From Thermoanaerobaculia bacterium (GTDB lineage: Bacteria; Acidobacteriota; Thermoanaerobaculia; Multivoradales; UBA5704), in the NCBI GenBank assembly GCA_036002325.1, contig DASYTJ010000012.1:61457-125456 (forward strand): a stretch of DNA of 64,000 nt, given 5' to 3'. The translations under genes were made by a program, and so were the position numbers. A model generated the notes under the pieces. It ran no database searches, had not been told where the DNA came from, and saw only the letters and a program-made list of their open reading frames with translations. Below, one piece after another: positions 1,435 to 55,708 of the stretch (positions are counted from its first letter, which is position 1; the number at the start of each line of letters is the position of its first letter).

Positions 1435-2706
1435 CTATGCCTTCGCCGCCCGAAGATACACCGCCAGATCGCCGACATTCGTCCCGGTCGAGCCGGTTTC
1501 GAGCAGCGCGCCCGGCACGGCGGCGAGCGCTCGGCGGGAATCGTGGCCCGCGAGGGCGGCGTCAGGATCGATTCCGGCTCGCCGGACCGCCTCCCAGGTA
1601 CCGCCGTCCACCGTCGCGCCGGCGTAGCGGGTGGGACCGTCCTCGCCGTCGGTCGCCACGGTGAAGACGAGCTCGCCCGCACCGCCGGAGAGCTCCCGCG
1701 CCGCCGCCAGCGCTAACTCCTGGTTGCGCCCGCCGCTGCCGGCCCGTTCTCCCAGCGTGACGGTCGTTTCGCCGCCCAGGACGAGCGCCGCTCCGGCGTC
1801 CCCCGTCTCGCGGGCGAGGGAGCGCCCCCTCTCGACCAGCTCGCGGCCGGCCTTCGCCGCCTCGCCTTCCAGCCCGCCGTCGGCGACGTGGAAGCCTCGC
1901 CGCCGCGCCGCCGCCAGCGCCGCCGCCGCCGCCGTCCACGCGCTCCCGAGCAGAATCGTGTCCACGTTGGCGAGCGAGGGATGGCCCGGTTTCAGGGTCT
2001 CGGGGATCTCGCCCTGCGCTCCGGCCGCGAGGTGGCGCCGGACGCTCTCCGGCACGCGCAGGCCGCCGACGGCCGCGAGAGCCTCGGCGAAGGTCGTCGG
2101 GTCCGCCGTGAAGGGGCCGGAGGCGATCGCGGCGGGATCGTCTCCCGGCACGTCGGAGAGCAGCAGGAGAAGGACGCTCGGCAGGCGATCGCCCGCTATG
2201 CGCAGAGCGCCGCCGCCCTTCAGCCGCGAGAGGTGCTTGCGGACGGCGTTGACAGTCTGGATCGGCAGGCCCGCGGCCAGCAACGCGCGCTGGGTGGCCG
2301 CGAGATCGTCGAGAGTGAGGTCTCCGGCGGGCGCTTCCACGCAGGCCGAGGCGCCGCCGGAGATCAGGGCGAGGAGAGGCCGGGCGGGAATCTCGGCCAG
2401 CCATCGCTCCAGGCGCTCGCCGGCGGCGAGGCTCTGCCGGTCGGGAAGAGGATGGCCGCCGGTCTTCTGCTCCCATCCCGGATCGAGCAGCGACGACGAG
2501 AGGAGGGGACGGATCAGCAGCCGCCGCGCTCCGGGCTCCAGCGCCGCGCGCACGCCGCGGCCGAGCGCCGCACCGGCCTTGCCCAGGGAGAGGACGGCGC
2601 TGAATCGCTCTCCCCGCCGGGCCAGCTCTTCGCGCGCCAGCCGCTCCGGATCCACCGCCGCGAAAGCGGCGGCGGTCATCTGCCGGGCGAGATCGTGGAG
2701 ATCCAT
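1435..2706 (-). CDS. Glycerate kinase (MOFRL/glycerate 2-kinase family)
   Basis: 423 aa; ALISGGASACVE..., HLSRLKGG, LSDVPGDDPAAIASGPF, GGETTVTL...GRNQE motifs of hydroxypyruvate-reductase-associated glycerate kinase (MOFRL). Confidence 0.75.
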   Translation of the reverse strand: MDLHDLARQMTAAAFAAVDPERLAREELARRGERFSAVLSLGKAGAALGRGVRAALEPGARRLLIRPLLSSSLLDPGWEQKTGGHPLPDRQSLAAGERLERWLAEIPARPLLALISGGASACVEAPAGDLTLDDLAATQRALLAAGLPIQTVNAVRKHLSRLKGGGALRIAGDRLPSVLLLLLSDVPGDDPAAIASGPFTADPTTFAEALAAVGGLRVPESVRRHLAAGAQGEIPETLKPGHPSLANVDTILLGSAWTAAAAALAAARRRGFHVADGGLEGEAAKAGRELVERGRSLARETGDAGAALVLGGETTVTLGERAGSGGRNQELALAAARELSGGAGELVFTVATDGEDGPTRYAGATVDGGTWEAVRRAGIDPDAALAGHDSRRALAAVPGALLETGSTGTNVGDLAVYLRAAKA

Positions 2707-2794
2707 TTGGAAGGCTTAAGGATAGCTCCGATCGGATCGGCTATGATGAGCTACCGGCAAGATCGCATCGCAGACGGTTCCCGGAGGAAGCACT

Positions 2795-5700
2795 GTGGAA
2801 GCATTCTTCGTCCTCGTCGGGCTCGGGCTTTTGGGCATGGTGGCCGCAGCGCCGGTTCTGGCTATCATCGCCCTCGGGCGTGCGCGGCGTCTGGAGGCGC
2901 GCGTCGACATCCTGCAGACCGAGCTGACGGTCCTCAGGAGACACGTCGAGGCCTTCAAGACGGCGCCTTCCAGCCTGCCTGACGTTGAGGCGGTCGCCGC
3001 GCCGCGGCCTGAGCCGCCGCCGAAGCCGACCCCGCCGCCTGTTCCTGCCGTCGCGCCCGCGATGCCGGCCGCACCGCCGCCGGCCGCCACCGTGCCGCCG
3101 CGCCCCGTGCCGCCGATGACGGCTCCGGCGCCGCGGGTTGAGGCGAGAATCGAGCCGCGGCTCGAGCCGTCTCCGCCAATGCCTCCCGCTCCGCCGGCGC
3201 CTGCGGCGCCGCGGTTCGACTGGGAGAGCCTGCTGGGGCTGAAGGGAGCCGCCTGGCTGGGCGGCATCACGCTGGTCATCGCCGGCATCTTCCTCGCCAA
3301 GATGGCCTACGACGCCGGCTTCTTCAATCCCACGTTGCGCGCCGCCGCCATGGTGCTCGCCGGCGTCGGCGGGCTCATCTGGGCCGAGGTCAGCCTGCGC
3401 CGCGGCTATGTCACCACGGCCAACGCCGTCTCGGGCGCGGCCATCGCCGTCCTCTACACCGCCTTCTACGCGGCCCACGCCGTCTGGCACCTGCTGCCGC
3501 TCGGGCTCACTTTCCTGATGATGGCGCTGGTCACGGTGGTCGCCGGAGTGGTGGCCATCCGCTACGACGCGCTGTTCAGCGCCCTGCTCGGCCTGCTCGG
3601 CGGCTTCGCCACGCCGATCCTGCTGTCGACCGGCGAAGACCGGCCGGTGAGCCTCTTCTCCTACATCCTGCTGCTCAACCTCGGGCTCATGGCGGTCGCT
3701 GCGAAGAAGCGCTGGCATGGCCTCGTGCTGCTGGGGCTCGCCGGCACCTTTTTCATCGAGGCCGGCTGGGCCGCGAAGTTCCTGGCGCCGGAAAAGCTGA
3801 CGATCGGACTGCCGGTGTTCCTGATTTTCGGGCTGCTCTACCTCTTACTGCCGGCGATCGCCAAGCAGGAAGAGTCGCCGTCGTTGCTGCGGGCCGGCGC
3901 CGGGGGCATCGCCGTGCCGTTCCTCTTCGGCCTCTTCCTCGCCGGCAGCGCCCGCTACACCGGCGAGTGGCCGTTGCTCTTCGGCTATCTCGCGCTGCTC
4001 GACGCGGCGCTGATCGCCATCGCGCTGCTCCGCGGCCGGACCATCCTGCTGATCGGCGGCGCCGTCGCCACCGGCTTGACGCTGCCGCTCTGGGCGTTTC
4101 AGGGCCTCCGGCCGGCGGCGCTCTGGGGCCCGACGCTGGCGGTGATCGGCCTGGCGGCGCTGCTCAACCTGCCGGCGCGGCTGGCGCGACGGCTCGCGCC
4201 GCAGCGGCTGGAAGAGGACCGGGACGCCTACGAAGGCGCCGGCATCACGGCGGCGGCCGGCCTCGGCATCTACGCGCTCATCCTGGCGGAACGGGCGGCC
4301 GAACCGCCGTGGCCGTTCGCCGTCCTGCTCGCGGCGCTCACCCTTCTCCTCCTCGAACGTACCGGCGAGGAACGCCTGCGCTTCGTGATGCCCGTCGGCG
4401 CGACCGGCCTCGCGTTCCTGACGCAGATCTGGTTCCATCACGGCACGGCGGGCCCGACGCTGTGGCGCAACCTCGCCGTGCCGGTGCTCTTGGCGATCGT
4501 GCTGTCGCTCGTCGCCGCCCGCCGCGCCCGCGCGCCCATCAACGCCCTCGAGGACGAAGGAGGCGCGGTCGGGGCCACCATCGTCTCCGTACTCGGCTTG
4601 ATGGGCTGTCTGACCCCCGAGCTGGCAGCAGATCCCCTGCCGCTCTTCGCCGCGCTCGCCGTCTACGCCGTCCTGCTCGTCGTCTCGGCCCGGCGGCGGG
4701 ACTGGACTCCTCTCGTCGCGGCGGCTCTCGTTCTTTCGGCGGCCTTCGCCGTGGGATGGCAGGAAGGCTATTTCGAGGCGGCGGGCGGTGATCTCGCGGT
4801 CGTGCTGTCGATCTACGGCGTCTTCTATCTGGCGTTCCTCGTCCTGCCCTTCGCGCTCGCCGCGACGGTGGCTCCGGAGTGGCAGGAACGGCGGCTGCCG
4901 TGGATCAGCTCGGCGCTGGCCGGCCCGGCCTTCTTCCTGCCGCTCTACCGGGCGGTGTCGATCGGCTGGGGGAAGGCCTACATCGGTGCGCTGCCGCTGC
5001 TCCTGGCGGCGCTCAGCGTCGCGGCCGTGGCCGGCGTGAGGCGCCGCTTCGCCGCCGCGCCCGAGGGGACGCCGGAGGCGGGCCGCCGCCTCGGGTATCT
5101 GGCGCTCTTCTCCGCCGTCGCGCTCGGCTTCATCGCCGTGGCGATCCCGCTGCAGCTCCACCGCCAATGGATCACGGTCGGCTGGGCCCTCGAGGCCGCC
5201 GCGGTCTGGTGGCTGTTCGGCAAGCTGCCGCACCCGGGCCTGAAGTACTTCGGCGCGCTGCTCTTCGCCTTCGCGGGTGTGCGGCTGCTGGCGAATCCGG
5301 AGGTGCTGCGCTACGAGGAGCGCGGCCTGCCGATCGTCAACTGGCTGCTCTACACCTACGGCGTTCCGGCCCTCTGCTGCCTCGTCGGCGCCGTCTGGTT
5401 GAAGCGGGCGGAGGCGGCGCGGCAGGGCGCGCCGGACTACGACTTCCTCGCCGGAGACCGGAAGGTCCTGCCGCCGGCCGCGGCGGGCCTCGGCCTCATC
5501 CTTCTTTTCGCATTGATCAACCTGGAGATCATCGACTTCTTCTCCACCTCCCGGTACGTGGAGCTCAGCACGGAGCGCCAGCTCGCCCGCGACCTGACGA
5601 TGTCGTTGGCCTGGGGGCTCTACGCCATGGCGCTGCTGTTGACGGGCCTCTGGCGCAAGCTGCGGGCGCTGCGCTTCCTCTCCCTCGGCTTCCTGCTGCT

Positions 5701-33573: not shown

Positions 33574-33646
33574 GGGTCCATAGCTCAGCGGTGAGAGCGT
33601 CCGGCTCATAACCGGCAGGTCCCTGGTTCGAATCCAGGTGGACCCA
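33574..33646 (+). tRNA. tRNA-Met (anticodon CAT; could be tRNA-Ile2 if lysidinylated)
   Basis: Cloverleaf: acceptor GGGTCCA/TGGACCC, D arm GCTC-AGCGGTGA-GAGC, anticodon loop CTCATAA, T arm CCTGG-TTCGAAT-CCAGG; CCA not encoded. Confidence 0.85.
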
Positions 33647-33733
33647 CTTCGGAAGCGCTCCGAGCCATCATGACGATGCGGCCGCGCGGCAGGGAGTGCG
33701 ATGATTTTTCTTGGAGAGGAGCGGACCTTCTCG

Positions 33734-41825: not shown

Positions 41826-42235
41826 ACAAGCTTCAGGCGAGCCGATGCAAGCTTGTGGCGAGCCGATGCAAGCCTGAGGTGACGCGACTGAAGCTTGAAG
41901 TGGCGCAATTGAAGGCGCAAGTGACGCGACGACTGCTTGAAGTGGCGCGGCTGAAGCTTGCGGCGAGCGGGTCGAAGCTTCCAGCGAGGCGGCGGAAGCT
42001 TGCGGGATTTCCGGCAAGCTTCAGCCGCGACGGCGCAAGCTTCAGGCGAGTGGGCACAAGTTTGCGGCGTGACGCGCGAAGCTTGCGGTGACCCGGTTGC
42101 AGCTTGCCGGGAGACGCCTGAAGCTTCTGGCGAGCCGATTGAAGCTGCAAACGAAGCGCCTGAAGCTTGCGGGATCTCCGGCAAGCTTGAACCGCAGCGC
42201 CGCAAGCTTTCTCCCGAGCCGCCTGAAGCTTGCCG
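41826..42235. repeat. Tandem array of about 20 imperfect 21-bp repeats each beginning AAGCTT (HindIII palindrome)
   Basis: Units such as caAGCTTcaggcgagccgatg, caAGCTTgtggcgagccgatg, AAGCTTgcggcgagcgggtcg, AAGCTTcaggcgagtgggcac; occupies whole convergent intergenic gap between EVE gene and esterase gene; generates frame-shifting KL-heptad pseudo-ORFs on both strands. Confidence 0.85.
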
Positions 42236-43948: not shown

Positions 43949-44195
43949 GATTGAAGCCCGTCTTGGAAACTCATCTGGTTGGTAAGGCGCTTGTCAACTT
44001 GTCGATAGCTCTTCGTTGGGAGATTATTCGACGCAGTACGCGAGCCTCGCGTAGCAGCTACCGCCTCGCATAATTTGGTCGAGTTCCTTGCGACCGCCGG
44101 CCATGTCTTGTTGGCCCAGAAGCTACTCGCTCAGGTTCGTCCCTTCTACCAGTTGTTCCGAGAGCCACAGTTCCAATGCCGACGTTTGTGGGCGG

Positions 44196-44953: not shown

Positions 44954-45037
44954 TCCGCTGCGTGGACGGGAGCACTAATGTGCTCCCGCCTTGTCCCGTT
45001 TTACCCTCCTCAAGCAACCATGTTTAGTAGGGAGGGC

Positions 45038-46435
45038 ATGCCGTATTCTCTAGTTCTGGGAGGGCCTAGAGTGAAGCTTCACCCCCATGATTTGTTGCTG
45101 CAGGAGTTCGCCGCCACCTTTTCGGAAGATCGCGCGGACTGCCTCGATCACCTCATTCGGTGCCCCCGCTGCCGGAAGCAGTTCAGATCACTGCTTCACT
45201 TGCAGCTGAACCCGCTTGCCGAAAACGTCGTCCCTCTCTGGCGCCAGCAGCCTGGGCCTGTAGACTACGAGCCGGGCTTGGCCAGGGTCTCTCGAGATCT
45301 CAAGCATCTTCCTTCTGCCTACGAGAAAGAGAGGGTGGAAGCGCTAGGGCTCTTTTCGGAGCTGTCGTCTTACCACCCCAGCAAGCAGTCGCTCATGGTG
45401 CGGAACTTTGAGCGGTTCCATACCTGGGGTCTCTGCGAGCTCCTTTTGCAGCGCACTCTGGAGCAGAACTTCCAGAATCCCTCTCTCGGCGAGAGTTTCG
45501 CCCTGCTGGCTCTCGAGATCTCAGATTACCTCGCAGACACCTACTATGGCGCCGAAGCGATCGAAGACCTAAGAGCGCGAGCTTGGGCTTACGTGGCAAA
45601 TGCGCGCCGGCTAAAGGCTGATCTGCGGGGAGCCGAAGAGGCGTTTGCCCTGGCGTTTGCCTGCCTCAGGCGAGGAACTCTGCACCCGATGGAGAAGGCT
45701 GTACTTCTCGATCTTCAGGCTTCACTCCTGAGAGCGCAACGGCGCTTCGGCAAGTCGTTGTCCCTTCTTCGACGTGCCGCGTCGATCTTCCGGAAACTTG
45801 GTGAGAAGCACCGCGCCGGCCGAGTTTTGATCAACATGTCCACGGTCTTCTACGTCGCAGGTGAGCCCAAGAAAGCTATCCCTCTGATCTATGAGGCGCT
45901 CGAGCTGATTGATCCGGCCAGGGAGCCACGCCTGCTGCTGAGCGTTTGGCATAATCTCATCTACAATCTCACCGAAATCGGCCAATTCATGGAAGCACAG
46001 CGGCTTTTCGTGAGGGCCAGGCCGCTTTACCGGCAATTCCCTGAGCCCTGGGCACAGAATCGTAGCGCGTGGGCTGAAGGCCGAATCGCTCGCGGCTTGG
46101 GTTTGCGGGAGCAGGCGGAAGATCTCTTCCTCGCGGCGCGTGCCGGCTTTCTTGCCGCGAAGGCTCCTTACGAGATGGCCCATGTCTCTCTTGAGCTCGC
46201 CTCTCTCTACGCGGAGGAAGGCCGGACGGCTGAGCTGAAGCAGCTCGCCGAGGAGATGATGCCCATCTTCTCCTCCCGTCAGATCCACCGTGAGGCGCTC
46301 GCGGCCCTCGCTTTCTGGAAGCAGGCGGTCGAGACGGAGAAGGCGGGACTGGAACTTGTAACGGGAGTGGCGTCCTTCCTCAAACGGGCACAGCACGATC
46401 CCGAGCTGCGATTCGAGCGGCCCAAAGAATCGTAG
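45038..46435 (+). CDS. TPR-repeat regulator with N-terminal HxxxCxxC zinc-finger (ZAS-like)
   Basis: RBS GGGAGGG upstream of ATG 45038 (alternative GTG 45071 at conserved VKLHPHD); LDHLIRCPRCRKQF zinc motif; multiple TPR-like helical repeats; lower GC (about 57%). Confidence 0.55.
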   Translation: MPYSLVLGGPRVKLHPHDLLLQEFAATFSEDRADCLDHLIRCPRCRKQFRSLLHLQLNPLAENVVPLWRQQPGPVDYEPGLARVSRDLKHLPSAYEKERVEALGLFSELSSYHPSKQSLMVRNFERFHTWGLCELLLQRTLEQNFQNPSLGESFALLALEISDYLADTYYGAEAIEDLRARAWAYVANARRLKADLRGAEEAFALAFACLRRGTLHPMEKAVLLDLQASLLRAQRRFGKSLSLLRRAASIFRKLGEKHRAGRVLINMSTVFYVAGEPKKAIPLIYEALELIDPAREPRLLLSVWHNLIYNLTEIGQFMEAQRLFVRARPLYRQFPEPWAQNRSAWAEGRIARGLGLREQAEDLFLAARAGFLAAKAPYEMAHVSLELASLYAEEGRTAELKQLAEEMMPIFSSRQIHREALAALAFWKQAVETEKAGLELVTGVASFLKRAQHDPELRFERPKES

Positions 46436-46466
46436 CGCCAATCTGCCAATAGAGGAAAAGCGGCTG

Positions 46467-46488
46467 GGGGCGCAGCATGCTGCGCCCC
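46467..46488. terminator. REP-like palindrome variant GGGGCGCAGCATGCTGCGCCCC
   Basis: Between convergent TPR gene (ends 46435) and cupredoxin-like gene (ends 46500). Confidence 0.5.
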
Positions 46489-46499
46489 ACTTAAGAGGT

Positions 46500-47270
46500 T
46501 TACGCCTTCGGCTTGAAGTCGAAGGTGACCGTCGCGGTCTGGTTGGGGGCGATTGTCACTTCCTGGGTCTGGGTGCCCAGCTTCTCGTGCCAGGCCTCGA
46601 GGGTGTACTTGCCGGGAGGTAGCTTGTCGATCGAGAAGGAGCCGTCCTCGCCGCTGACCGCGTAGTACGGATGCGGCACCACGCCGACCCAGGCGGTCAT
46701 CCAGGGGTGGACGTCGCACTTGATGTGAACCGCCACCTCCGGCTTGTCGAAGACCTTGTCGATCGGCGGCAGACCCTGCGGCTGCGCCTGGTTGAACTCC
46801 TGGTTCGTCGTCGGCAAGGCATGGACGTTGTGCAGCGTCGCGTCGGTGTTCTTGACCGACAGCGTCTGGCCCGTCTGCATGCCCTGGACGCGCGGCGTAT
46901 ATTGGCAGCCGACCTGGTCGATCTCCTTCTTCTCCGCCGGCGCCGGGAAGGTTTTCCCCTCGAGGCCGGTCTTGACGTAGACGAAGACGTTGCCCAGCTT
47001 GCCGTCCTTGACAGCGATCTCGTTGGTGTCGACCGGGGTCGGGTGCAGGCCGGCGCAGATCGGATCGGCGTTCATGGCGATCGGCGTGTCGGTGTCCGGC
47101 CCCGCGTAGGTGACCGTACCGCTGATGCCGCCGGCATCGGCCGGCGCCGCAGCCGGCGCGCTGGCCGCCGGGGCCTCCGTGGTCTGCTCCTCATCCTTGG
47201 CTCCCCCGTGGCAACCTGCCAGCACCGGCAGCGCGCAGAGCGCCAGAATCCACAATCTGTTCCTGCTCAT
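46500..47270 (-). CDS. Cupredoxin-like (type-1 copper site candidate) lipoprotein; carboxypeptidase-regulatory-like beta-sandwich
   Basis: 256 aa; RBS AAGGAGG; lipobox LAGC; candidate Cu ligands HNVH ... C-DV-H-PW-M (C-x2-H-x2-M); last gene of cytochrome bc operon; ORF track merges it into a 1297-aa artefactual ORF. Confidence 0.5.
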   Translation of the reverse strand: MSRNRLWILALCALPVLAGCHGGAKDEEQTTEAPAASAPAAAPADAGGISGTVTYAGPDTDTPIAMNADPICAGLHPTPVDTNEIAVKDGKLGNVFVYVKTGLEGKTFPAPAEKKEIDQVGCQYTPRVQGMQTGQTLSVKNTDATLHNVHALPTTNQEFNQAQPQGLPPIDKVFDKPEVAVHIKCDVHPWMTAWVGVVPHPYYAVSGEDGSFSIDKLPPGKYTLEAWHEKLGTQTQEVTIAPNQTATVTFDFKPKA

Positions 47271-47389
47271 ACGAAAACCTCCTTGTTGGGGTGGAAGACT
47301 TTGTCGATAGGGAGAAATCCTGCAAGACGCGAGCCGGCCGCGGTAGCACCGTGGCCCGGACTCCGGCTCAAATTTACTACAACTCACGG

Positions 47390-50300
47390 TCAACGGCCGC
47401 CGGCTCCTCCCGCAGTGACCGCCGCCCCGGGAGCCGCGACGGGGACCATCGGCTGGCGGCCGCCGGAGATCGCCCAGATATGGTCGCGCAACGCCGTCGA
47501 GACCTTGTCCGCATCGGCAAGCCAGGCGTTCATCTCCGCCTCGGAGGAGAACCACCGGAGGATCTGCTGCTTCTGGGCGGCGAAGGCCGGCGAGGCGAGC
47601 TGGAACGGCACGGGGGACACGAGCTTGCCGGAGGGATCTCGCGAGAAGAAGTTCGGCATCCGCGTGCTCGGCACCCAGGCTTGCGGATCCTGAATCCACA
47701 ACGGCACCCAATCGTAGCGCAGGCGGTCGTGGGCCATCAGCAGCGATGGCGCCAAATCCCCCGAGGCCGCCGCCGCCGAAACCGGCGCGGTCGGATGGCA
47801 GCGCGCGCACTGCAGCATGCCGAACACCACGCCGCCCACGGCGAGGCTCCGCGGATCGGGTGCCGGCGGCTCGGAGAGGAAAGGCGAGCGCTGCTCGCGG
47901 GCCTGGAAATAGGAGATGACGGTGTTGGCCTGGTCGTCCGTGAAGCCGAACGTCGGCATGCGGACGGTGAGCCACGGCCGCATCTTCACCCGGCTCGGGT
48001 CGTGCAGATAGCTGAACAGCCAGTCGCCCTGCACGCGCGCCCCTTCGGCGGCGAGGTTCGGCGGCAACGAGGCTTCGTTGTCGCCGAGCAGGCTCTTGAT
48101 GGCGCGGCCGTGCCCCTCGATCAGGTGGCAGCCCTGGCAGTTGTAGCGGGTGATCAGCTTGCGCCCCTCGGCGAGCGCCGCCGTCCGCGCGTCGTTGCCG
48201 GCGCGGCGGGGCGCGAGCGCCGATTCCTTGGTGAAGCCCATGACGTTGGCGAGCACCGCCGTGGCCTCGCGCTGCGACATGCCGAAGTTCGGCATCTTGA
48301 GCAGCTCGTTGTAATCCTTGGCGGCCTCCTTGCCTTCGTCCCACATCCGCGGCCGCAGCAGCTTGTTGAACACCCAGTCCTGCCGCGTGTGCGGCACTTC
48401 GTGAACGTGGCCGAAGTCGAGCTGGTGGAGCGGCTTCGAGCCCTCCTGCGTCAGCTCGGTGCCGATCGGCTTGGTGTTCTCGAAGCCCTTGATGTCGTGG
48501 CAGCCGTAGCAGCCATACTTGGCGATCGTCTGCTCGCCGAGATAGACGTTGCGCTCGGCCTCTGACATGGCGGCGAGCTTGGCGCGGCTGCGATCCATGG
48601 TGTAGAGGTTCTGGAGATAGCCGAGCGCCAGCTCGTCGCGCACGCCGCGGTCGACGGCCGGCAAGGCCGCGTTCTCGTACGCGCGGTTGTGGTTCGGCGC
48701 GTCGAGCAGGTACGCCGTGATGTCCGCCGCCTCCTGATCGGTCAGGCGGAGGTTCGGCATGTTGGTGTCGGGGAAGTACTGCTTCGGGTTCCTGATCCAG
48801 GCGTAGAGCCAGCCGCGCGACACCTTGCTGCCGGTGTTGACCAGGTTCGGGCCGTGCAGGCGGTTGATCAGAGGAAAGAAATCGTCGCGCTTGGCCTTGG
48901 CGTCGAGGAGATGGCAGCCGCCGCAGCCCACAGTCTCGAAGAGCTGCTTGCCGTGCGCCGGATCGCCCATCGGCACGGCCACGTCGTCGTAGACCGGCCG
49001 CTCCGACTTCGCCCACAGGTAGGAGACGATGCCGTTGATCTCCGCCTGCTGCCGCTTCAGGTTGGCCGGCGTGGTGGTGTTCTCCTGGTTGAAGAAGTGG
49101 GGCATCCAGGTCGTGGGATGGAAGTTGCGCGGCGCCTCGATCCACTTGTAGGCCCAGCCGGGATTCGTCTTGCCGGCGAGGCGCAGCAACGAAGGGCCCG
49201 CCTTGCGCAGGCCCGTGAAGCCCGGCAGGTTGATGTTGTGGCAGCCGTAGCAGCCCATGTGCGCGATCAGCTCGCGCCCCACCTCCTGCTCGTCCGACTT
49301 CGGCGTCCAGACGCCGCTGGCGTGACAGCCGACGCAGCCGGACTCGGCGAGGTTGGCCGGCAGGATGGGGTAGTCGAGGAACTGCGGCTGCGACCAGCCC
49401 CACTTCCGCTGCCACTCCCCCTTCTTCTCCTCCCAGGCCTTCTTCGACGCCTCGTCGTGAGCCTGCAGCAACGGCAGGTTGTGGCCGGCGCGGGCGAATT
49501 CGGTGGCGCGGTCGAGGCCGCCGTGGCAGATGGTGCAGCCGAAGCGGCTGTAGGGGTGGGGCGAGGAGTCGCCCACGAACAGGTCGATCCGCGGATGGCT
49601 GCGGAACGGCTCCGGCCACTCCACCTCTTTGGTGTTCGGGTCGTCCAGGAAGCCCGGACGGTTCGCCGCCACGTGGCAGGTCATGCAGCGGTCGACGCGG
49701 TCGATGTTGGTGAAGTTGATGTTCTGGTAGAGCCCCGGCAGGATGACCTGCTCGACCTTGAGGCTCGGCTTCAGGAAATCCATCAGCGGCGCGTTGAGGA
49801 GGAAGTAGTCGACCCCTTTGCCGAGGCTGGCGATGCGCGTCTCGATATTTTCGACGCCGCTCTGCAGGTCCTTGAGTTTCTTCTCCGCGCCGGTGAGCAG
49901 CGCCTGCTTGTCGGCCAGCCGGCGCTGCGCGTCGTCGAGGCCGTCCTGCGCCTCCTCCTTCTTGTGCTGGGCGTCGATGAACGCCTTCCGCGCCTCCTCG
50001 TAGTCCTCTGCCGCCGCCGCCGCGGCGCCCTTGTCGCCCGTCTGCAGCGCCGTGTCGTACTGGAACTTGTAGGCGTCGGAGCGCGCCTTGGCGCCCTTCC
50101 ACGCCGTATCGGCGATGTTGTACTGGGTCTTGCGGTCCTTGATCTCGTCCTCCAGCTTGTCGAGATCCTGGCGGTGCTGGTCGAGCTCCGCCTGCGCCCG
50201 CTGAATCTCCTGCTTGAGCTGCGCGAGGTCGTTCTGGTTCAGCCGCTGCTTCTCCGCCTCGGCCTCCTTCTCCAGCTTCTGCCGCTCCAGGCTGCGGAAC

Positions 50301-50461
50301 TCCGACTGGATCCGCTTCCACGGCTGCGCGTAGTCCGCGAAGGCCATCCACAGCGTCACCGCCAGCAGCGCGAGGGAGCTGATGGCGAACCACATGTTCA
50401 TACGGCCGAAGTTGTAGTGGCGGTCGGGACGCTTCTCAGGCGGTGTAGTGGGCGGTGTCAA
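47390..50461 (-). CDS. Octaheme c-type cytochrome with N-terminal TM anchor and coiled-coil
   Basis: 1023 aa; eight CxxCH motifs (CMTCH, CTICH, CVGCH, CYGCH, CGGCH, CYGCH, CQGCH, CARCH). Confidence 0.8.
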
Positions 50462-50476
50462 CGTGGAGCTCCTGTG

Positions 50477-51556
50477 CTAGATATTGAAGAAGTACTCCTG
50501 GACGTGGACGAAATACTTGAGGTTGAACAGCCAGCGGCAGTACATCTTGATCGGCAGCAGCATCATGAACAGGAACAGCGTCACGCCGACGTAGTAGCGG
50601 GGCGGCCCCATCTTCTCGTAATACTTCTTGAACCATTTGGTACGGCGCAGCAGCACCGGCAGGCCGATGAAGTAGAAGCCGATGAGCAGGATGCCCGGCA
50701 GCTCGCGCACGAACCAGTTGCCGGGCAGGCCGACGTTCAACAGCTTGATCCAGAAGTACTCCGAGAGGTCGACGTTGACCAGCGCCTCGACCTTGTTCTG
50801 GTCCCAGAACTCGTACGGCCCGAAGAAGTTCCAGTTGGGGCCGCGCAGGAAGGTGCCGATGACGATCATCTGGCTCCACAGCACCAGCCAGCCGAAGAAG
50901 AAGAGCGTGATCTCCACCTTGCGCTCGCGGAAGGTGTAGTAGCCGTTGCCCTTCGGGTTGGTGTCGATGTAGGGGATCGCCATCAGCCCGAGGATGATGA
51001 GCCCCGGCAGCACGACGCCGGCGAGCCAGGGGTCGAAGTAGACGAGCATCTCCTGCAGGCCGAGGAAGTACCACGGTGCCTTCGAAGGGTTCGGCGCCAG
51101 CGCCGGGTTCGCCGGCTCCTCCAGCGGCGCCCTCAGGACGATCGACCAGACGACCATCACGACCGTCAGGATCACCATGCAGATGAACTCGGAGAAGACG
51201 AGGTCCGGCCAGGTGAAGATGCGGTCCTCCACCTCGGTGGTCTCGAACAGCGGCTCGCCGTTGGCGGTCCGCGCGTCGTTGGCGGTGGCCTTGCTCATCG
51301 CGAACCAGACGAAGAAGCCCACCAGGAAGACCATCATCACGATCGGCACGTTGTCCGGCTTGGCCACGATCGAACGGAAGTTCGGATCGAGCAGCGAGGC
51401 GAGGAAGTAGGCGGTGCCGGCCGCCAGCAGGATGAGGCCCCCCCGCTTCGTCCACAGCCGCTTCGACCGCAGCATGAGGATGAAGAGGATCACCGACAGG
51501 GTGAACGACCAGTAGGGATACGCGAGGACGTTGATGGCTTGCTTGATGAAGTCCAT
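50477..51556 (-). CDS. Cytochrome b C-terminal domain protein (subunit IV-like, extended)
   Basis: 359 aa polytopic; PEWY-type motif [11 protein letters not shown]. Confidence 0.75.
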
Positions 51557-51577
51557 GGCTGTCTCCGCCCTCCTCGA

Positions 51578-52357
51578 CTACATGGGCCCCGAGATGCCGC
51601 CGTCCTTGCGGACGCGCCAGAAGTGGACGGCGATCAGGAACGCCGCTACCAGCGGAATCCCCACACAGTGCAGCACGTAGAAGCGGATCAGCGTGGCGTT
51701 GCCGATCGTGCGGCCGCCGATCAGCGCGAAGCGTGCGTCGCTGCCGGCGTGGATCAGACGTTGCCCCCCCAGCTTGAGGAGGGCGGCACCCGGTCCCTCG
51801 TTGCCTAACAGCGGTGTCGCCCGCGCCATGTTGGAGCCCACGGTGATCGCCCAGATGGCGAGCTGGTCCCAGGGCAGCAGGTAGCCGGTGAAGGAGAGCA
51901 GCAGGGTCAGCACCAGCAGGATGACGCCGACGTTCCAGTTGAACTCGCGGGGCGGCTTGTAGGAGCCGGTCATGAAGACGCGGAACATGTGCAGCCAGAC
52001 CGCGATCACCATGGCGTGGGCGCCCCAGCGATGCAGCTCGCGCATGATGCCGAAGGCGGCGGCCTCGCGCAGGTCAACGATGTCCACGAAGGCGTACTCC
52101 ACGGACGGCCGGTAGTAGAACATCAGCAGCAGTCCGGTGATCGTCTCGACGAGGAACAGGAAGAACGCCGTTCCCCCCATGCACCAGGTGTAGCTCATCC
52201 GGATGCCGGACTTCTTCACCTTGATCGGGTGCAGGTGAAGCACCACGTTGCCGAGCATGGCGAGGGCGCGCTTGCGGTTGTCCGTCGGGATGCCCACCCG
52301 AAAGATGGACCTCCAGATCTGTGACTTGGTGACGCTCTTGGACAGGTTGCCGATCAT
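51578..52357 (-). CDS. Cytochrome b N-terminal domain (b6-like, heme-binding)
   Basis: 259 aa; His ligand pairs in helices B and D (HRWGAH...H, HCVGIP...HFWRVR); [11 protein letters not shown]. Confidence 0.8.
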
Positions 52358-52373
52358 GAGTCCTCTTTCGTGG

Positions 52374-53060
52374 TCAGGCGGCCGGGATGAAGGCGTTGGG
52401 GTCTTCCCACTGCCCCAGCTCCCATTGGAACTTCTGCGACTTGTCGACGACGATCTGGCCGTCGTCGGGGCTGATGAAGATGCGCGCGCGCTCCAGCGGC
52501 CGCGGCGTCGGCCCCTCGAAGTTGACGCCGCTCTTGTAGTAGCCGCTGCCGTGGCAGGGGCACTTGAACTTGTTCTGCGTCTCCAGCCAGGCAGGCGGGC
52601 AGCCCAAGTGGGTGCAGATGGCGATCAACGCGTAGATCCGCCCCTGGTCGTGGACGATCCACACGCCATACTTGTCGACGAAACGTGTATCCACCACGCC
52701 CGCCTGAAAGTCCTCCGGCTTGCCGACCTTGAAGCTGGTCGGCGGCTCGAACAGCACGTTGGGGAACATGAAGCGGGTCATCGCTGTGACGCAGCCGCCG
52801 ATCGCCACCGTGAAGCCGACCCAGGCCACGGCGGCCCAGGAGAAGAAACCGCGGCGCGTCATGTCCGCCGCGGCGGCCGGCTTGGCCGCCGGCGCAGGTT
52901 TGGGCGCAGGTTTGGTGGCGGGAGAGGCAGGCGCGGAAACTGCGGCCGGGCTCGTCACCGGCGAAGCGGACGCAGCCGTAGCTTCCCCGCCGGCCTGGGC
53001 GCTGGGCGCCTGTGGAGCGGTCGGTTGGGACGGAGGGCTGCCTTCGGGTTCGTCAGCCAT
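52374..53060 (-). CDS. Rieske [2Fe-2S] iron-sulfur protein
   Basis: CTHLGC...CPCHGS boxes; N-terminal Ala/Pro-rich region and TM. Confidence 0.8.
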   Translation of the reverse strand: MADEPEGSPPSQPTAPQAPSAQAGGEATAASASPVTSPAAVSAPASPATKPAPKPAPAAKPAAAADMTRRGFFSWAAVAWVGFTVAIGGCVTAMTRFMFPNVLFEPPTSFKVGKPEDFQAGVVDTRFVDKYGVWIVHDQGRIYALIAICTHLGCPPAWLETQNKFKCPCHGSGYYKSGVNFEGPTPRPLERARIFISPDDGQIVVDKSQKFQWELGQWEDPNAFIPAA

Positions 53061-53155: not shown

Positions 53156-54040
53156 TCAAGAGCGTCCTCGCGCGTCAACCGCCTGGCGGGCCTCGATCGC
53201 CGCCTGGCGGACCTTGAGGCTGGGGTCGTCCTTGGCGAGGGCCTCGAACGTCGGCCGATAGCGCACGCCTCCGACCACGGCTAGCGCTCGTATGGCGCTC
53301 ACCATCGCTTCCTCCTGCTGCTCGCGGGTGATGTCGGGTACCTGTGTGAGCAGCCGGCGATCCACCATGGTCTCCAGCACCGGCAGCCCGGCGTCGCTCC
53401 CCAGGCGGGCGAGCGCCAGGGCGGCGTTCCAGCGCACGTCGGCCGCCGCGTCGTCGAGCGCCGCCGTCAGGCGAGGTACGGCGGCGCGGTCGCCCATCTC
53501 GCCGAGGGCGAAAGCGGCGATCTTGCGCAAACCCGGGTCTTGATCCTCCAGCGCGGTCTCGAGGGCCGCCCGGCCGCGTGGATCGCCCAGCGTGCCGAGC
53601 GCCCAGAGGGCGTAGATGCGGGTCTTGTCGTCGGGATCCTGGAGCGCTGCGAGCAGCAGGGGCACGGCCTCGCGATCGCGCGTCCGGCCCAGCACCAGAG
53701 CCAGGTATTGCCGCATCTCCGGTTCTCTGGTTTCGAGGAAGAGCCGCCGCACCTCCTGCTTCGCGCCGGACTCTTCATCGAGCGCCCGGGGATCGGAGAC
53801 CAGGATCTTCGACAGCTCGTAAGCCGCCTGTACCCGCCGCGGCTTCCACCACGACTGCAGGTCGTTGACATAGTCGCCGGTCGTCTGCCGATCGTAGGCG
53901 ATCCAGCCAAAGCCGATGAAGACGGCGACGCAGAGAATGACGACCAGCAGCGGGACGATGAAGAGGCCGAGGAACGAGCGCAGAGCGCCGCTCCCGGCCT
54001 CTTCGCTTACTTCCTCGGGGGGTACCTCCGGTTCGGACAT
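53156..54040 (-). CDS. HEAT-repeat (PBS lyase-like) protein with N-terminal TM anchor
   Basis: Repeated AVPLLLAALQDPDDKTRIYALWALGTLGD / AVPRLTAALDDAAADVRWNAALALARLG units. Confidence 0.65.
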   Translation of the reverse strand: MSEPEVPPEEVSEEAGSGALRSFLGLFIVPLLVVILCVAVFIGFGWIAYDRQTTGDYVNDLQSWWKPRRVQAAYELSKILVSDPRALDEESGAKQEVRRLFLETREPEMRQYLALVLGRTRDREAVPLLLAALQDPDDKTRIYALWALGTLGDPRGRAALETALEDQDPGLRKIAAFALGEMGDRAAVPRLTAALDDAAADVRWNAALALARLGSDAGLPVLETMVDRRLLTQVPDITREQQEEAMVSAIRALAVVGGVRYRPTFEALAKDDPSLKVRQAAIEARQAVDARGRS

Positions 54041-54091: not shown

Positions 54092-54895
54092 TCAAGCCGG
54101 CTCGCCCGCGAGGCGGGCCCTGAAGCGGCGCCATACGTCGGAGATCCCGCCTCCCGCCGCGCCGCCGCCGAGCAGGACGTCGAAGCGGGCCGGTTCGCGG
54201 GCGAGCGACTCCGTGGCCAGCGCCTCGAGCGCTGCGTCGAGGGCGTCCTCCAGCACGGCCGTCCAGTCGCTCGCGCCCATGCCGGCGTCTCCCGTCGGGA
54301 TCTCCTCGCCGAAGCGGGCCAGGATTTCCGGTAGCTGCTCTTCCCAGAAAGGGACTTCCAGGGCGAGCGGCAGCAGAACGGCTTGACGTGCTCGCGCCGC
54401 GAGATGGCCGATTCCTGAACGTACGCGGACGGGCCGCTCGCGCGGATCGGTGAAGCGCCCCTCGGCGGGTATCCACAAGGCCGAATCGGGCCGCGAGAGG
54501 ATCTCCCGCGAGAGGGTGAGAAAGCGCCGCGCGCCGCGCGCCGTGGCGGGGTCGACGCCGATGAAGCCCATGCGTTCGAAGAAACGGTACCGGTTGATAC
54601 CCGCATCGATCGGGCCATAGTGCCGGCGGTCGGGAAAGAGATGTGCCGCGAGCTGCAGACAGATCAGCGGATCCCACCACGAAGGGTGGTTGAGATAGAT
54701 GATCAGCGGCTTGCCGCGGGCGGCCACGAGATCCGGCCGTTGCGCTTTGGAGAGGCGGAGGGTGTTGAAGTGCCGGGCGAGATGACGCTCGCTGTAGCCT
54801 CCGAAGAGAGAAACGAGCAGCGGCGAGACCTCGTTCGCCTTGCGTGACCGCTCCTGCCGGCTTTCCGGCGGTCGCTTCTTGTCCGCCTCATCCAT
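54092..54895 (-). CDS. Lysophospholipid acyltransferase (PlsC/LPLAT family)
   Basis: NHPSWWD (HX4D acyltransferase motif), IPAEGR. Confidence 0.65.
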   Translation of the reverse strand: MDEADKKRPPESRQERSRKANEVSPLLVSLFGGYSERHLARHFNTLRLSKAQRPDLVAARGKPLIIYLNHPSWWDPLICLQLAAHLFPDRRHYGPIDAGINRYRFFERMGFIGVDPATARGARRFLTLSREILSRPDSALWIPAEGRFTDPRERPVRVRSGIGHLAARARQAVLLPLALEVPFWEEQLPEILARFGEEIPTGDAGMGASDWTAVLEDALDAALEALATESLAREPARFDVLLGGGAAGGGISDVWRRFRARLAGEPA

Positions 54896-54910: not shown

Positions 54911-55708
54911 CTAGGAGGGTGCCTCCATGGTGAACGGCCGCAGATTCAGCTTCACCTGATGCTGGGGGGCCGCCGTTCCCGACGGCGAGGTGCCGTGGAA
55001 GTAGTGCCTCTGCCACTGGGTCTCCACGACTGTAGGATCGCGGCGTTGCAACCCTTCGTTGAAGCGTTCCCGTTCGCTGCTCCACCGGCGGTAGGCCAGC
55101 TCTAGGTCCGGATCGCTCGCGATGGCGCGCACCGCCGGGTCGAATCGTTCGAGGTCGTAACGCGGTTGCGGCACGATCATCGCGACCGGAAAGCCCTTGG
55201 GGAAGACTACCTCGCAGTCCGGCCGCGTCAACTGCCAGTTCATGGTGAACGTGGCGACCGACCAGTCCGCCTCGACGATCCCCTCGAGCGGCGAGGCGCC
55301 GTCCAGCGGCCAGTTGGCCGGTCCGCGCACCAGGAGGTTGTAGCCGGGAGGCGTACGGAAGAGATAGGGAATGTGCCAGGTGAGGATCCCCGAGCCGAAA
55401 TGACTTCCGGCGACCGCCGGCGGCCCGGCGGGATCAGACAATACCTGGACATCCTCTTTCCTCACGCCGCCGTTCCATCTGGCACGGACCTCGGCCCCGG
55501 CGGTGATGGACCAGCCGGCCTGATTGGCGACGACCATGGGAAGGCAGCGATAGGCGAATCGCTCGGGAGTGTGGTCCATCCAAGGGCGATGGTAGGCCGC
55601 CGGCACGACGTCGAATGGCCCGCCGGAAACCCGGTAAGCCGTGAGCGCCGGACGGGGCTGATCGGGGTGCGCAGCTTCAGCAGGGGAAGGGCCCATAGCA
55701 TCCTCCAC
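54911..55708 (-). CDS. Hypothetical conserved protein (DUF-type)
   Basis: 265 aa, non-repetitive, good coding periodicity; no catalytic motif recognised. Confidence 0.4.
   Translation of the reverse strand: MEDAMGPSPAEAAHPDQPRPALTAYRVSGGPFDVVPAAYHRPWMDHTPERFAYRCLPMVVANQAGWSITAGAEVRARWNGGVRKEDVQVLSDPAGPPAVAGSHFGSGILTWHIPYLFRTPPGYNLLVRGPANWPLDGASPLEGIVEADWSVATFTMNWQLTRPDCEVVFPKGFPVAMIVPQPRYDLERFDPAVRAIASDPDLELAYRRWSSERERFNEGLQRRDPTVVETQWQRHYFHGTSPSGTAAPQHQVKLNLRPFTMEAPS

Follow-up and report, generated by a model that had tools for sequence, protein, structure and literature searches.

On the minus strand of a Thermoanaerobaculia (Acidobacteriota) contig, of which a 64-kb stretch (the window) was analyzed, lie in order the genes for a HEAT-repeat protein, a Rieske protein, the N- and C-terminal parts of a split cytochrome b, an octahaem cytochrome c, and a lipoprotein (Table 1). 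An initial annotation had proposed the five genes from Rieske to lipoprotein as an operon, and all five are present on this strand, preceded by the membrane-anchored HEAT-repeat protein and the acyltransferase that it had also reported. Its dismissal of a 1297-aa open reading frame (46500–50393) as an artefact holds as well: it is a read-through that runs across the cytochrome c gene in a different reading frame, and the 256-aa lipoprotein gene is called by gene callers on two public contigs. Two start codons have alternatives, with independent gene callers beginning the Rieske protein later (194 aa) and Met21 of the cytochrome c, at 50401, giving a product of 1003 aa.

Table 1. Features of the locus, in window coordinates.
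Feature	Position	Strand	Length	Supporting evidence
Terminator-like hairpin	46451–46488	−		GGGGCGCAGC-AU-GCUGCGCCCC, then CUUUUCCUCU; read from sequence
Lipoprotein	46500–47270	−	256 aa	GGAGG ribosome-binding site, LAGC lipobox, CDVHPWM
Membrane-anchored octahaem cytochrome c	47390–50461	−	1023 aa (TTG start)	8 CxxCH
Subunit-IV-like cytochrome b C-terminal half	50477–51556	−	359 aa	Pfam Cytochrom_B_C, E = 1e-5
Cytochrome b6-like N-terminal half	51578–52357	−	259 aa	Pfam Cytochrome_B, E = 4e-42, 144.7 bits
Rieske [2Fe-2S] protein	52374–53060	−	228 aa	Pfam Rieske, E = 1e-11, 45.1 bits (cut-off 20.3)
HEAT-repeat protein, single TM anchor	53156–54040	−	294 aa	Pfam HEAT_2, E = 2e-29; HEAT_PBS, E = 4e-20
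Acyltransferase	54092–54895			Upstream of the HEAT gene

The terminator-like hairpin falls between the stop codon of the lipoprotein gene and a convergent TPR gene, and marks the end of the operon; a terminator consensus scan missed it because its T-run begins 6 bases past the stem. At the other end, the acyltransferase belongs to the local context only and does not recur with the operon: among the loci compared, it and DUF6065 occur only in the window's own sequence (L001), and we rejected both as members of the module. We likewise rejected a candidate regulatory RNA in the gap that separates the cytochrome c gene from the lipoprotein gene, its folding energy being the same as that of shuffled sequence (z = −0.03).

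The bc core and its octahaem partner

The Rieske protein has a Tat-type TRRGFF signal anchor and, as read from the sequence, both cluster-binding boxes of the superfamily (CxHxGC and CxCHxS), here CTHLGC and CPCHGSGY; it matches the NCBIfam Rieske models of both b6f and bc1 complexes, in each case under the cut-off. Cytochrome b had been described as split and b6-like with a PEWY-type motif, and it is indeed encoded by two separate genes. The N-terminal part contains both histidine pairs expected for haems bL and bH, H-x13-H in helix B (LHRW...WLHMF) and H-x14-H in helix D (LHCV...AVHFW), together with a haem-ci-type motif, WCMGG, that is kept in relatives as WC[MA]GG. Against NCBIfam it scores 260.7 bits with ExtP (cut-off 290) and 182.8 bits with cytochrome b6. 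The C-terminal part is extended, with about 7–8 hydrophobic segments by hydropathy; its NCBIfam matches, to ExtQ and b6f subunit IV, are under cut-off, and its Qo motif APWYF is invariant in 12 aligned relatives. APWY is a natural variant of the PEWY Qo motif (PMC4122944). To judge from these features, cytochrome b belongs to the b6f-type subgroup, being split and having the helix D H-x14-H spacing and the cysteine of CxGG, and the APWY and WCMGG motifs would assign the bc core to the published APWY clade.

No homologue of cytochrome c1 or cytochrome f was detected in the operon by Pfam and NCBIfam searches; the octahaem gene comes next. This agrees with the initial proposal that a membrane-anchored octahaem cytochrome replaces c1. 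The protein contains CxxCH exactly eight times, and neither CxxxCH nor CxxxxCH occurs in it. An N-terminal TM helix and a coiled coil of ∼170 aa precede the haem-binding part, in which three multihaem-type haems are followed by five haem domains of class-I type; its domains match CcoO, class I cytochrome c, ActA, and c7. Across 17 sequences that represent six phyla, the eight CxxCH motifs, three extra histidines, and five methionines (Met or Met-Pro) are all invariant, a pattern in which the first three haems probably have bis-His ligation and the five class-I domains that follow His/Met ligation.

A predicted cupredoxin domain nested within the lipoprotein

The lipoprotein has a lipobox (LAGC, residues 17–20) and a disordered Ala/Pro linker. 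The lipobox cysteine, Cys20, is conserved in 102 of the 139 relatives, most of the others being gapped at the N-terminus. A cupredoxin domain (residues ∼115–198) is nested inside a carboxypeptidase-regulatory-like sandwich (∼47–101 plus 201–252). The outer, transthyretin-like domain is identified by its fold and by a Pfam match (PF13620) above the gathering score. For the inner domain, no cupredoxin model was matched in Pfam and NCBIfam searches, and a single-sequence phmmer search against the PDB gave at best E = 0.26, to 5fc9. The alignment to amicyanin required a profile, which places residues 118–196 onto amicyanin 24–103 and aligns His147, Cys185, His188, and Met191 with amicyanin His53, Cys92, His95, and Met98. 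Identity to solved cupredoxins is 12%–27%, and the model predicts a Greek-key cupredoxin β-sandwich.

Alignment with known cupredoxins, by structure as well as by sequence, suggests that the four ligands cluster in three dimensions. Among 139 representatives of the family, clustered at 50% identity, each ligand is kept in 138 or 139, and this near-invariance across diverse relatives argues for a functional metal site. The type-1 copper-like arrangement (His...Cys-x2-His-x2-Met) claimed at the outset is thus borne out at the level of conserved positions, and the protein would bind copper and transfer electrons. Two findings could have spoken against the copper-site reading, a plain carboxypeptidase-regulatory-like sandwich with ligands scattered in space and homologues devoid of the ligands; in the event the sandwich holds a predicted cupredoxin and the homologues retain the ligands, and neither refutes it.

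Conservation, synteny and the proposed electron path

The gene order HEAT–Rieske–bN–bC–octahaem–lipoprotein recurs in Acidobacteriota, Omnitrophota, Latescibacterota, Verrucomicrobiota, Gemmatimonadota, and Bacteroidota/Ignavibacteriales, that is, in at least six phyla, with eight CxxCH motifs every time. With this order found again in dozens of loci across several phyla, chance can be dismissed as the origin of the cluster. Its first conserved gene encodes the HEAT-repeat protein, whose conservation with the operon the initial annotation had singled out for checking: the gene lies upstream of Rieske in nearly all related loci with enough upstream DNA, and its presence tracks the CxGG cysteine of cytochrome b. 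An exception, L124, has an IS110-like transposase gene upstream of its Rieske gene, which explains the missing HEAT gene. The protein has a single TM helix (residues 24–42), and positive-inside counts over 51 homologues (K+R of 2.0 at the N-flank versus 1.4 at the C-flank) favor a periplasmic HEAT domain. We therefore think it unlikely that the protein is a haem ci lyase, a role considered by analogy with HEAT-type bilin lyases, since haem ci lies on the cytoplasmic side.

The lipoprotein gene is less tightly bound to the bc operon. A search by the octahaem gene gave 55 operons: in 31 the lipoprotein gene is adjacent, in 8 it lies within 1–8 kb, and in 16 (∼30%) there is none within reach. These last operons would suit a scheme in which CuA, or another reductase, takes its electrons straight from the octahaem cytochrome, a protein with five class-I-type domains that might do the docking on CuA. 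The lipoprotein would then be a structural or docking subunit with an incidental copper site, or else serve a different acceptor such as a nitrite or nitrous oxide reductase. Alternative complex III (ACIII) is likewise reported to be able to pass electrons to an aa3 oxidase without its monohaem subunit (PMC8552683). The near-invariant copper ligands of the 139 relatives weigh against an incidental site, and nir or nos genes were not seen among the recurrent neighbors, and we consider this scheme very unlikely.

Homologues of the lipoprotein usually lie directly upstream of ctaA-ctaB or of COX1/COX2/COX3, whether or not a bc operon is present. By this measure of gene neighborhood, the family is associated more closely with the genes for aa3-type oxidase and haem A than with the bc operon. 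Of the initial view of a blue-copper acceptor dedicated to the bc complex, the copper-site motif stands, but the dedication is not strict. Where a neighboring COX2 gene is complete, its product has the CuA motif (43/43) and, in all but one case, lacks CxxCH and hence a cytochrome c domain (42/43); such an oxidase needs an external one-electron donor, and the cupredoxin is the sole small carrier encoded in the oxidase-linked clusters.

The frequent position right before ctaA and ctaB would also fit an assembly or maturation factor of the aa3-type oxidase, one that delivers copper to CuA or CuB or supports the insertion of haem A and that sits beside the bc operon here as the relic of one former respiratory cluster. 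The conserved His...Cys-x2-His-x2-Met set, however, has the ligand loop spacing of amicyanin, an electron-transfer protein, and not the Met/His-rich PCuAC motif, and a donor is what the 42 c-less COX2 neighbors would predict. The lipoprotein gene also closes bc operons that have neither cox nor cta genes as neighbors, among them the one in this window and those of L083, L087, L099, and L104. On balance we judge an assembly role unlikely. For this organism the oxidase link would be carried over from its relatives, as tBLASTn with COX1, COX2, COX3, CtaA, and CtaB over the 64-kb window returned nothing.

We consider it reasonably probable that the six-gene module encodes a Rieske/cytochrome b superfamily enzyme, acting as quinol:acceptor oxidoreductase, together with its tethered carrier, and feeds an aa3-type oxidase. 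The analysis shows which genes are present, their motifs and predicted fold, their conservation, and their synteny; from these, cofactor occupancy, direction of flow, order of carriers, and partner oxidase may be drawn as follows. Quinol, presumably menaquinol, would be oxidized at the Qo site with its APWY variant, one electron passing to the cluster of the Tat-exported Rieske protein (CPCHGSGY) and the other crossing the membrane in the manner of a Q cycle, by way of haems bL and bH and, probably, a haem ci bound covalently to the WCMGG cysteine. From the Rieske cluster, electrons would enter the membrane-anchored octahaem cytochrome, in place of cytochrome c1 or f, and continue to the lipid-anchored type-1 copper protein. 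From the copper protein they would reach oxygen through an A-family (aa3-type) haem-copper oxidase, entering at the CuA of a subunit II that lacks a cytochrome c domain.

An operation in reverse, in which a high-potential periplasmic donor feeds the quinone pool through the cupredoxin and the octahaem cytochrome at the expense of the proton-motive force, the cupredoxin branching to the oxidase, seems highly improbable. Its precedent lies with Kao and Hunte, who suggested that complexes with an APWY Qo motif operate in reverse and noted the independent PPWY motif in A. ferrooxidans (PMC4122944). The layout of bc complex, cytochrome c, cupredoxin, and aa3 oxidase also resembles the iron-oxidation system. 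In Acidithiobacillus ferrooxidans, rusticyanin is the branch point to the oxidase. Here, however, no donor-oxidizing enzyme occurs in the window or among the conserved neighbors, nor does an outer-membrane cytochrome or dehydrogenase; the phyla with the module are known mainly as aerobic heterotrophs, and where the cluster is joined directly to an entire oxidase operon, this agrees with downhill respiration of the ordinary kind.

A more ambitious form of the forward path, which we regard as fairly unlikely, is a hard-wired supercomplex: a phylum-spanning complex III that has gone unrecognized, in which the octahaem cytochrome, with a long coiled-coil hairpin, and the lipid-tethered nested cupredoxin bridge the Rieske/cytochrome b dimer to a cytochrome-c-less aa3 oxidase, so that a diffusible carrier is not required. 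The HEAT protein would there serve the complex specifically, as a subunit or as a maturation factor linked to covalent haem ci, because its presence tracks the CxGG cysteine.

Significance and comparison with known systems

Acidobacteriota, Verrucomicrobiota, and Gemmatimonadota rank with the most abundant bacteria of soils, and their aerobic chains have been annotated mostly by analogy. If the forward path is true, the module would provide in these phyla a link from the quinone pool to aa3-type oxidases that lack a cytochrome c domain. It would also give a probable function to a large family (1,632 clusters at 50% identity, E < 1e-30), in which the NCBI label "carboxypeptidase regulatory-like domain-containing protein" conceals a probable blue-copper electron carrier. 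In a full-text literature search, we found no description of the full octahaem/HEAT/cupredoxin module or of the nested cupredoxin family, and the arrangements in the Caldithrix and Ignavibacterium genome papers differ from it. The APWY clade, to which the bc core would belong, has been published, though not characterized.

That core resembles the APWY-clade complexes of Kao and Hunte 2014 (PMC4122944), for example those linked to Ext/Pcm in Geobacter, in its split cytochrome b, its APWY and WCMGG motifs, and its Ser/Tyr Rieske signature, which those authors classed as mid-to-high potential; Geobacter ExtP and ExtQ are the best NCBIfam matches of the two cytochrome b parts, just under cut-off. 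The phyla listed in that paper do not include Acidobacteriota, Verrucomicrobiota, Gemmatimonadota, Latescibacterota, or Omnitrophota, and the octahaem, HEAT, and cupredoxin partners are not described there (PMC4122944). Whereas reverse operation was proposed for the clade, the operon here is linked to an aa3-type oxidase, which would place the uncharacterized clade in a concrete physiological setting, oxygen respiration.

With cytochrome b6f and the b6c-type menaquinol:cytochrome c reductases of Bacillus and Heliobacterium, the locus shares the b6-like/subunit-IV-like split, the helix D H-x14-H, and the CxGG cysteine of haem ci; b6f, like the path proposed here, has a type-1 copper protein, plastocyanin, as acceptor. 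In contrast to both, the subunit IV here is more than twice as long, and a TM-anchored octahaem cytochrome takes the place of cytochrome f or of a subunit-IV/cytochrome c fusion. The copper protein, a lipoprotein, has two domains, one nested in the other, and the setting is respiratory, not photosynthetic.

Multihaem partners of Rieske/cytochrome b complexes are already known. The anammox R/b-2 and R/b-3 are such complexes with multihaem subunits, and in them, too, a multihaem cytochrome c replaces c1 as the Rieske acceptor, an arrangement that reportedly figures in the scheme of Dibrova et al. 2013. The present cytochrome differs in combining three multihaem-type haems, five class-I-type domains, a TM anchor, and a coiled coil, and the operon is linked to oxygen respiration, with the HAO-like or NAD(P)-linked subunits of the anammox complexes absent. 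Pfam and NCBIfam searches of the operon for ACIII subunits (the molybdopterin-family ActB/ActC and NrfD-like proteins) found none, and a single cytochrome c domain alone resembles part of ActA.

Finally, the lipoprotein can be set beside the tethered respiratory cupredoxins, namely auracyanin with ACIII, AcoP and rusticyanin of A. ferrooxidans, sulfocyanin, halocyanin, and amicyanin. It shares with them the predicted fold, the His/Cys/His/Met ligand set, the tether, and neighbors of complex-III type or oxidases, and with amicyanin the identical C-x2-H-x2-M spacing of the ligand loop. What sets it apart is that its cupredoxin domain is inserted in a carboxypeptidase-regulatory/transthyretin-like sandwich.

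Gene layout and the bc core

The feature is real and was rightly read in the initial annotation. Open reading frames, domain matches and motifs bear out its minus-strand operon, gene order and gene sizes in all particulars, together with the HEAT-repeat protein and acyltransferase said to precede it, and the intergenic gaps from the DUF6065 gene through the lipoprotein gene, all on the minus strand, measure 15–119 bases. The last gene had been described as hidden inside an artefact, and the 1297-aa ORF (46500–50393) of the mechanical ORF list is indeed an out-of-frame read-through and no gene. The 256-aa gene is called on two public copies of the same DNA and is preceded by a GGAGG ribosome-binding site of its own. 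Past the lipoprotein stop codon, and before a convergent TPR gene is reached, come a terminator-like hairpin and T-rich run, and the operon thus ends there.

Features of the bc operon and its surroundings (window positions)
Feature	Position	Strand	Remarks
DUF6065 protein	54911–55708	-	strong match, E=2e-89
Acyltransferase	54092–54895	-	
Single-TM HEAT-repeat protein	53156–54040	-	
Rieske protein	52374–53060	-	Tat motif, cluster boxes
b6-like cytochrome b	51578–52357	-	259 aa
Long subunit-IV-like protein	50477–51556	-	359 aa
Cytochrome c	47390–50461	-	exactly eight CxxCH motifs
Coiled coil of cytochrome c	49800–50330		residues about 45–215
Lipoprotein	46500–47270	-	256 aa
Terminator-like hairpin	46451–46488	-	10-bp GC-rich stem, then T-rich run
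TPR protein	44978–46435	+	485 aa, Cys/His pairs near N-terminus
TPR-like stretch	44024–44194		57 residues
21-bp tandem repeat	41827–42137		degenerate, ~15 copies, 61–92% match
tRNA-Met (CAT)	33574–33647		sole tRNA gene within window

The DUF6065 and acyltransferase genes are tightly packed 5' of the HEAT gene, with spacings of 15 and 51 bp. Of the loci compared, L001, with the window's own sequence, is the sole one to have them beside the operon, and they lie outside the conserved unit; the HEAT gene belongs to that unit, a point that the initial annotation had proposed to check. On the 3' side, the TPR gene is kept beside the lipoprotein gene in the closest relatives (L003–L008) among the matches listed, and ~800 bp upstream of it a short stretch shows 42% identity to the TPR protein. 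Gene calls of the public contig place the 21-bp repeat array between an esterase gene and an EVE-domain gene that converge, and overlapping ORFs with SPQAS-like repeats are probably artefacts of it.

The split b6-type cytochrome b with an APWYF motif, as first proposed, is encoded by two separate genes. The 259-aa protein carries H-x13-H in helix B, H-x14-H in helix D, which is the b6-type spacing, and WCMGG at the site of the single cysteine that holds haem ci in b6-type proteins. The 359-aa protein has APWYF at the Qo position and roughly double subunit IV's number of hydrophobic segments; the Rieske protein displays a TRRGFF Tat motif and the boxes CTHLGC and CPCHGSGY. APWYF, WCMGG and the Rieske boxes match the marks of the APWY clade (Kao and Hunte, PMC4122944). 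Members of that clade have APWY at Qo and in most cases WCMGG, their Rieske proteins have a predicted potential in the mid-to-high range, and no complex among them had been characterised when that paper appeared. Hence, judged by its motifs, the bc core belongs to this known, uncharacterised branch; among curated models, ExtP and ExtQ of Geobacter come closest, with scores just below the cut-offs. The complex falls within the Rieske/cytochrome b superfamily; having no c1 or f, it differs from a canonical bc1 or b6f. Multihaem partners of such complexes are an established idea, credited to Dibrova et al. (2013).

The octahaem cytochrome and the nested cupredoxin

The membrane-anchored octahaem cytochrome c of the initial annotation has a single TM helix before its eight haem motifs. 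We aligned 17 sequences (27–76% identity, residues numbered from Met21) from Acidobacteriota, Omnitrophota, Latescibacterota, Gemmatimonadota, Verrucomicrobiota and Bacteroidota/Ignavibacteriales. The alignment shows each of the eight CxxCH motifs to be invariant, as are exactly three histidines outside them (H269, H282 and H307) and five methionines. Four of the methionines occur in Met-Pro, and each of the five lies 45–68 residues past haems 4–8. The simplest bookkeeping would be three bis-His haems followed by five His/Met class-I-type domains, a reading that agrees with the profile matches (c7/NrfA-like over 240–358, CcoO-like over 372–450, class I cytochrome c and ActA over 470–567). A coiled coil of ~170 residues, found in 17 of 17 aligned homologues, separates the TM anchor from the first haem; its sequence is poorly conserved, with a conserved glycine-containing break near the middle, and the octahaem profile matches the EmrA α-hairpin weakly over it.

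The lipoprotein shows 100% identity to an NCBI protein from a Thermoanaerobaculia (Acidobacteriota) metagenome-assembled genome, which is also the source of the window. It begins with a standard lipobox (LAGC) followed by a disordered Ala/Pro-rich tether. Pfam recognizes only a carboxypeptidase-regulatory-like domain at residues 201–251, corresponding to model positions 29–80, and an NCBIfam search gave no match. As this C-terminal segment gives only ~52 residues to the sandwich, the N-terminal strands 47–55 and 96–101 must complete it, and the cupredoxin domain (~115–198) is therefore nested inside. The lipoprotein-family profile matched 5fc9 at E=1.7e-4, and the profile alignment sets lipoprotein residues 118–196 on amicyanin 24–103, such that H147, C185, H188 and M191 fall on the amicyanin copper ligands His53, Cys92, His95 and Met98. 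These residues are kept in 138, 138, 139 and 138, respectively, of 139 representatives clustered at 50% identity, and the superposition predicts that they cluster as a copper site. We tested both outcomes that would speak against the initial annotation, namely homologues without the Cys/His/Met positions and a plain sandwich with scattered ligands, and neither overturns its reading. C72 and C122, as invariant as the four ligands, probably form a disulfide. H76 is kept in 106 and H228 in 129 of the 139 relatives, and a second metal site may exist.

Distribution of the module and its variants

A scan with the lipoprotein alignment, taking one genome per species, confirmed at least 596 loci (596 of 600 candidates listed). 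Among the best 80 of these, about 27 have the bc genes, identically arranged, immediately upstream, and they span Acidobacteriota, Omnitrophota, Latescibacterota, Verrucomicrobiota, Gemmatimonadota and Bacteroidota/Ignavibacteriales, among others. Within this set, all complete cytochromes c have eight CxxCH motifs, APWYF is kept in 21 of 21 complete bc loci (including three from Bacteroidota/Ignavibacteriales) and WC[MA]GG in 16 of the 21.

The reverse scan, with the octahaem alignment against metagenomes, confirmed at least 540 loci (540 of 600 candidates listed). For 55 octahaem loci among the matches listed, at least 1.2 kb is available 3' of the cytochrome gene; the lipoprotein gene adjoins it in 31, lies 1–8 kb away in 8 and is missing in 16. 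Thus, the lipoprotein is a frequent, non-obligatory partner of the bc operon, and not strictly the "dedicated" blue-copper-like acceptor originally proposed. One variant (L157 5716–6893, also L161, L125, L118, L126 and L162) places two extra genes between the octahaem and lipoprotein genes, one encoding a polytopic membrane protein of ~257 aa and the other a protein of ~136–154 aa with CxxC pairs and one TM segment; Pfam matched no family to either protein of this L157-type variant. In another locus (L146 102–6500) a HEAT-Rieske-cytochrome b set comes immediately after the octahaem gene, which suggests two bc operons in tandem.

In the compared loci among the matches listed, presence of the HEAT gene goes along with a cysteine in the CxGG haem-ci motif. 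Every HEAT-bearing locus has WC[MA]GG, and five HEAT-less loci (L027, L040, L047, L057 and L061) have WGMGG instead; they represent two clades, one in Bacteroidota/Ignavibacteriales and one in Acidiferrales, and only four of them are informative, as L061 ends just upstream of the Rieske gene. The one HEAT-less locus among the matches listed that keeps WCMGG is L124. At the usual HEAT place upstream of its Rieske gene lies a 364-aa ORF (2533–3627) whose sequence, judged by eye, resembles an IS110-type transposase. Bilin lyases, which form Cys-vinyl thioethers, are among the HEAT-type proteins. Charge counts favor placing the HEAT domain in the periplasm, which would put it across the membrane from haem ci.

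Gene link to cytochrome-c-less oxidases

The main new finding is the link between lipoprotein and oxidase genes. In the 53 genome loci with a lipoprotein homologue and no bc operon (among the best 80 of at least 596), COX15/CtaA lies directly downstream in 22 and COX1 nearby in 15 among the matches listed, and COX4_pro and DUF420 are among the other recurrent neighbors. Across all loci among the matches listed, ctaA-ctaB or COX1/COX2/COX3 usually follow the lipoprotein gene directly on the same strand. One continuous cluster of HEAT, Rieske, b6-like, subunit-IV-like, octahaem, lipoprotein, COX subunit, ctaA and ctaB genes occurs in Verrucomicrobiota (L075, L078 and L081), Latescibacterota (L054 and L062), a Gemmatimonas contig (L069) and soil contigs (L096, L100, L101 and L103). 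The CuA motif C-x3-C-x3-H-x2-M is present in 43 of 43 complete neighboring COX2 proteins among the matches listed, and CxxCH is absent from 42 of them. As read from these motifs, the neighboring oxidases are CuA-containing, cytochrome-c-less enzymes needing an external one-electron donor, and the cupredoxin is the sole small carrier encoded beside them in the loci compared.

We consider a forward respiratory chain the probable reading. Quinol would be oxidised at the APWY Qo site, with one electron passing to the Rieske cluster, along the octahaem cytochrome to the tethered type-1 copper protein, and on to CuA of an aa3-type oxidase; the second electron would be recycled through bL, bH and probably ci. 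The tight adjacency of the lipoprotein gene to ctaA-ctaB speaks for a factor in oxidase assembly, a reading that we regard as unlikely; the ligand pattern, its near-invariance and the pairing with c-less COX2 point to a carrier. That the octahaem cytochrome donates directly, leaving the copper protein another role or acceptor, seems improbable, and reverse operation, as proposed for the APWY clade by Kao and Hunte (PMC4122944), slightly more so.

No cox/cta genes were found within the 64-kb window, or within the stretch covered in L001 and the near relatives L083, L087 and L104, and we therefore infer the partner oxidase of the window's organism. In L005 and L007, somewhat more distant relatives of the same class and of Holophagales, ctaB and COX genes lie 4–10 kb downstream, past the convergent TPR gene.

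Our search of full-text literature outside the subscription journals turned up no account of the conserved six-gene module and its invariant octahaem arrangement, and none of the association with c-less aa3 oxidases. Nor did it yield one of the nested cupredoxin family, a large family with 1,632 clusters at 50% identity (E below 1e-30). Its wide occurrence in major soil phyla gives the module moderate interest for bioenergetics; a mis-labelled protein family gains a probable function, and the APWY clade becomes experimentally approachable. The window's system is proposed to work like b6f with plastocyanin, ACIII with auracyanin, or the cytochrome c/AcoP/aa3 system of A. ferrooxidans.
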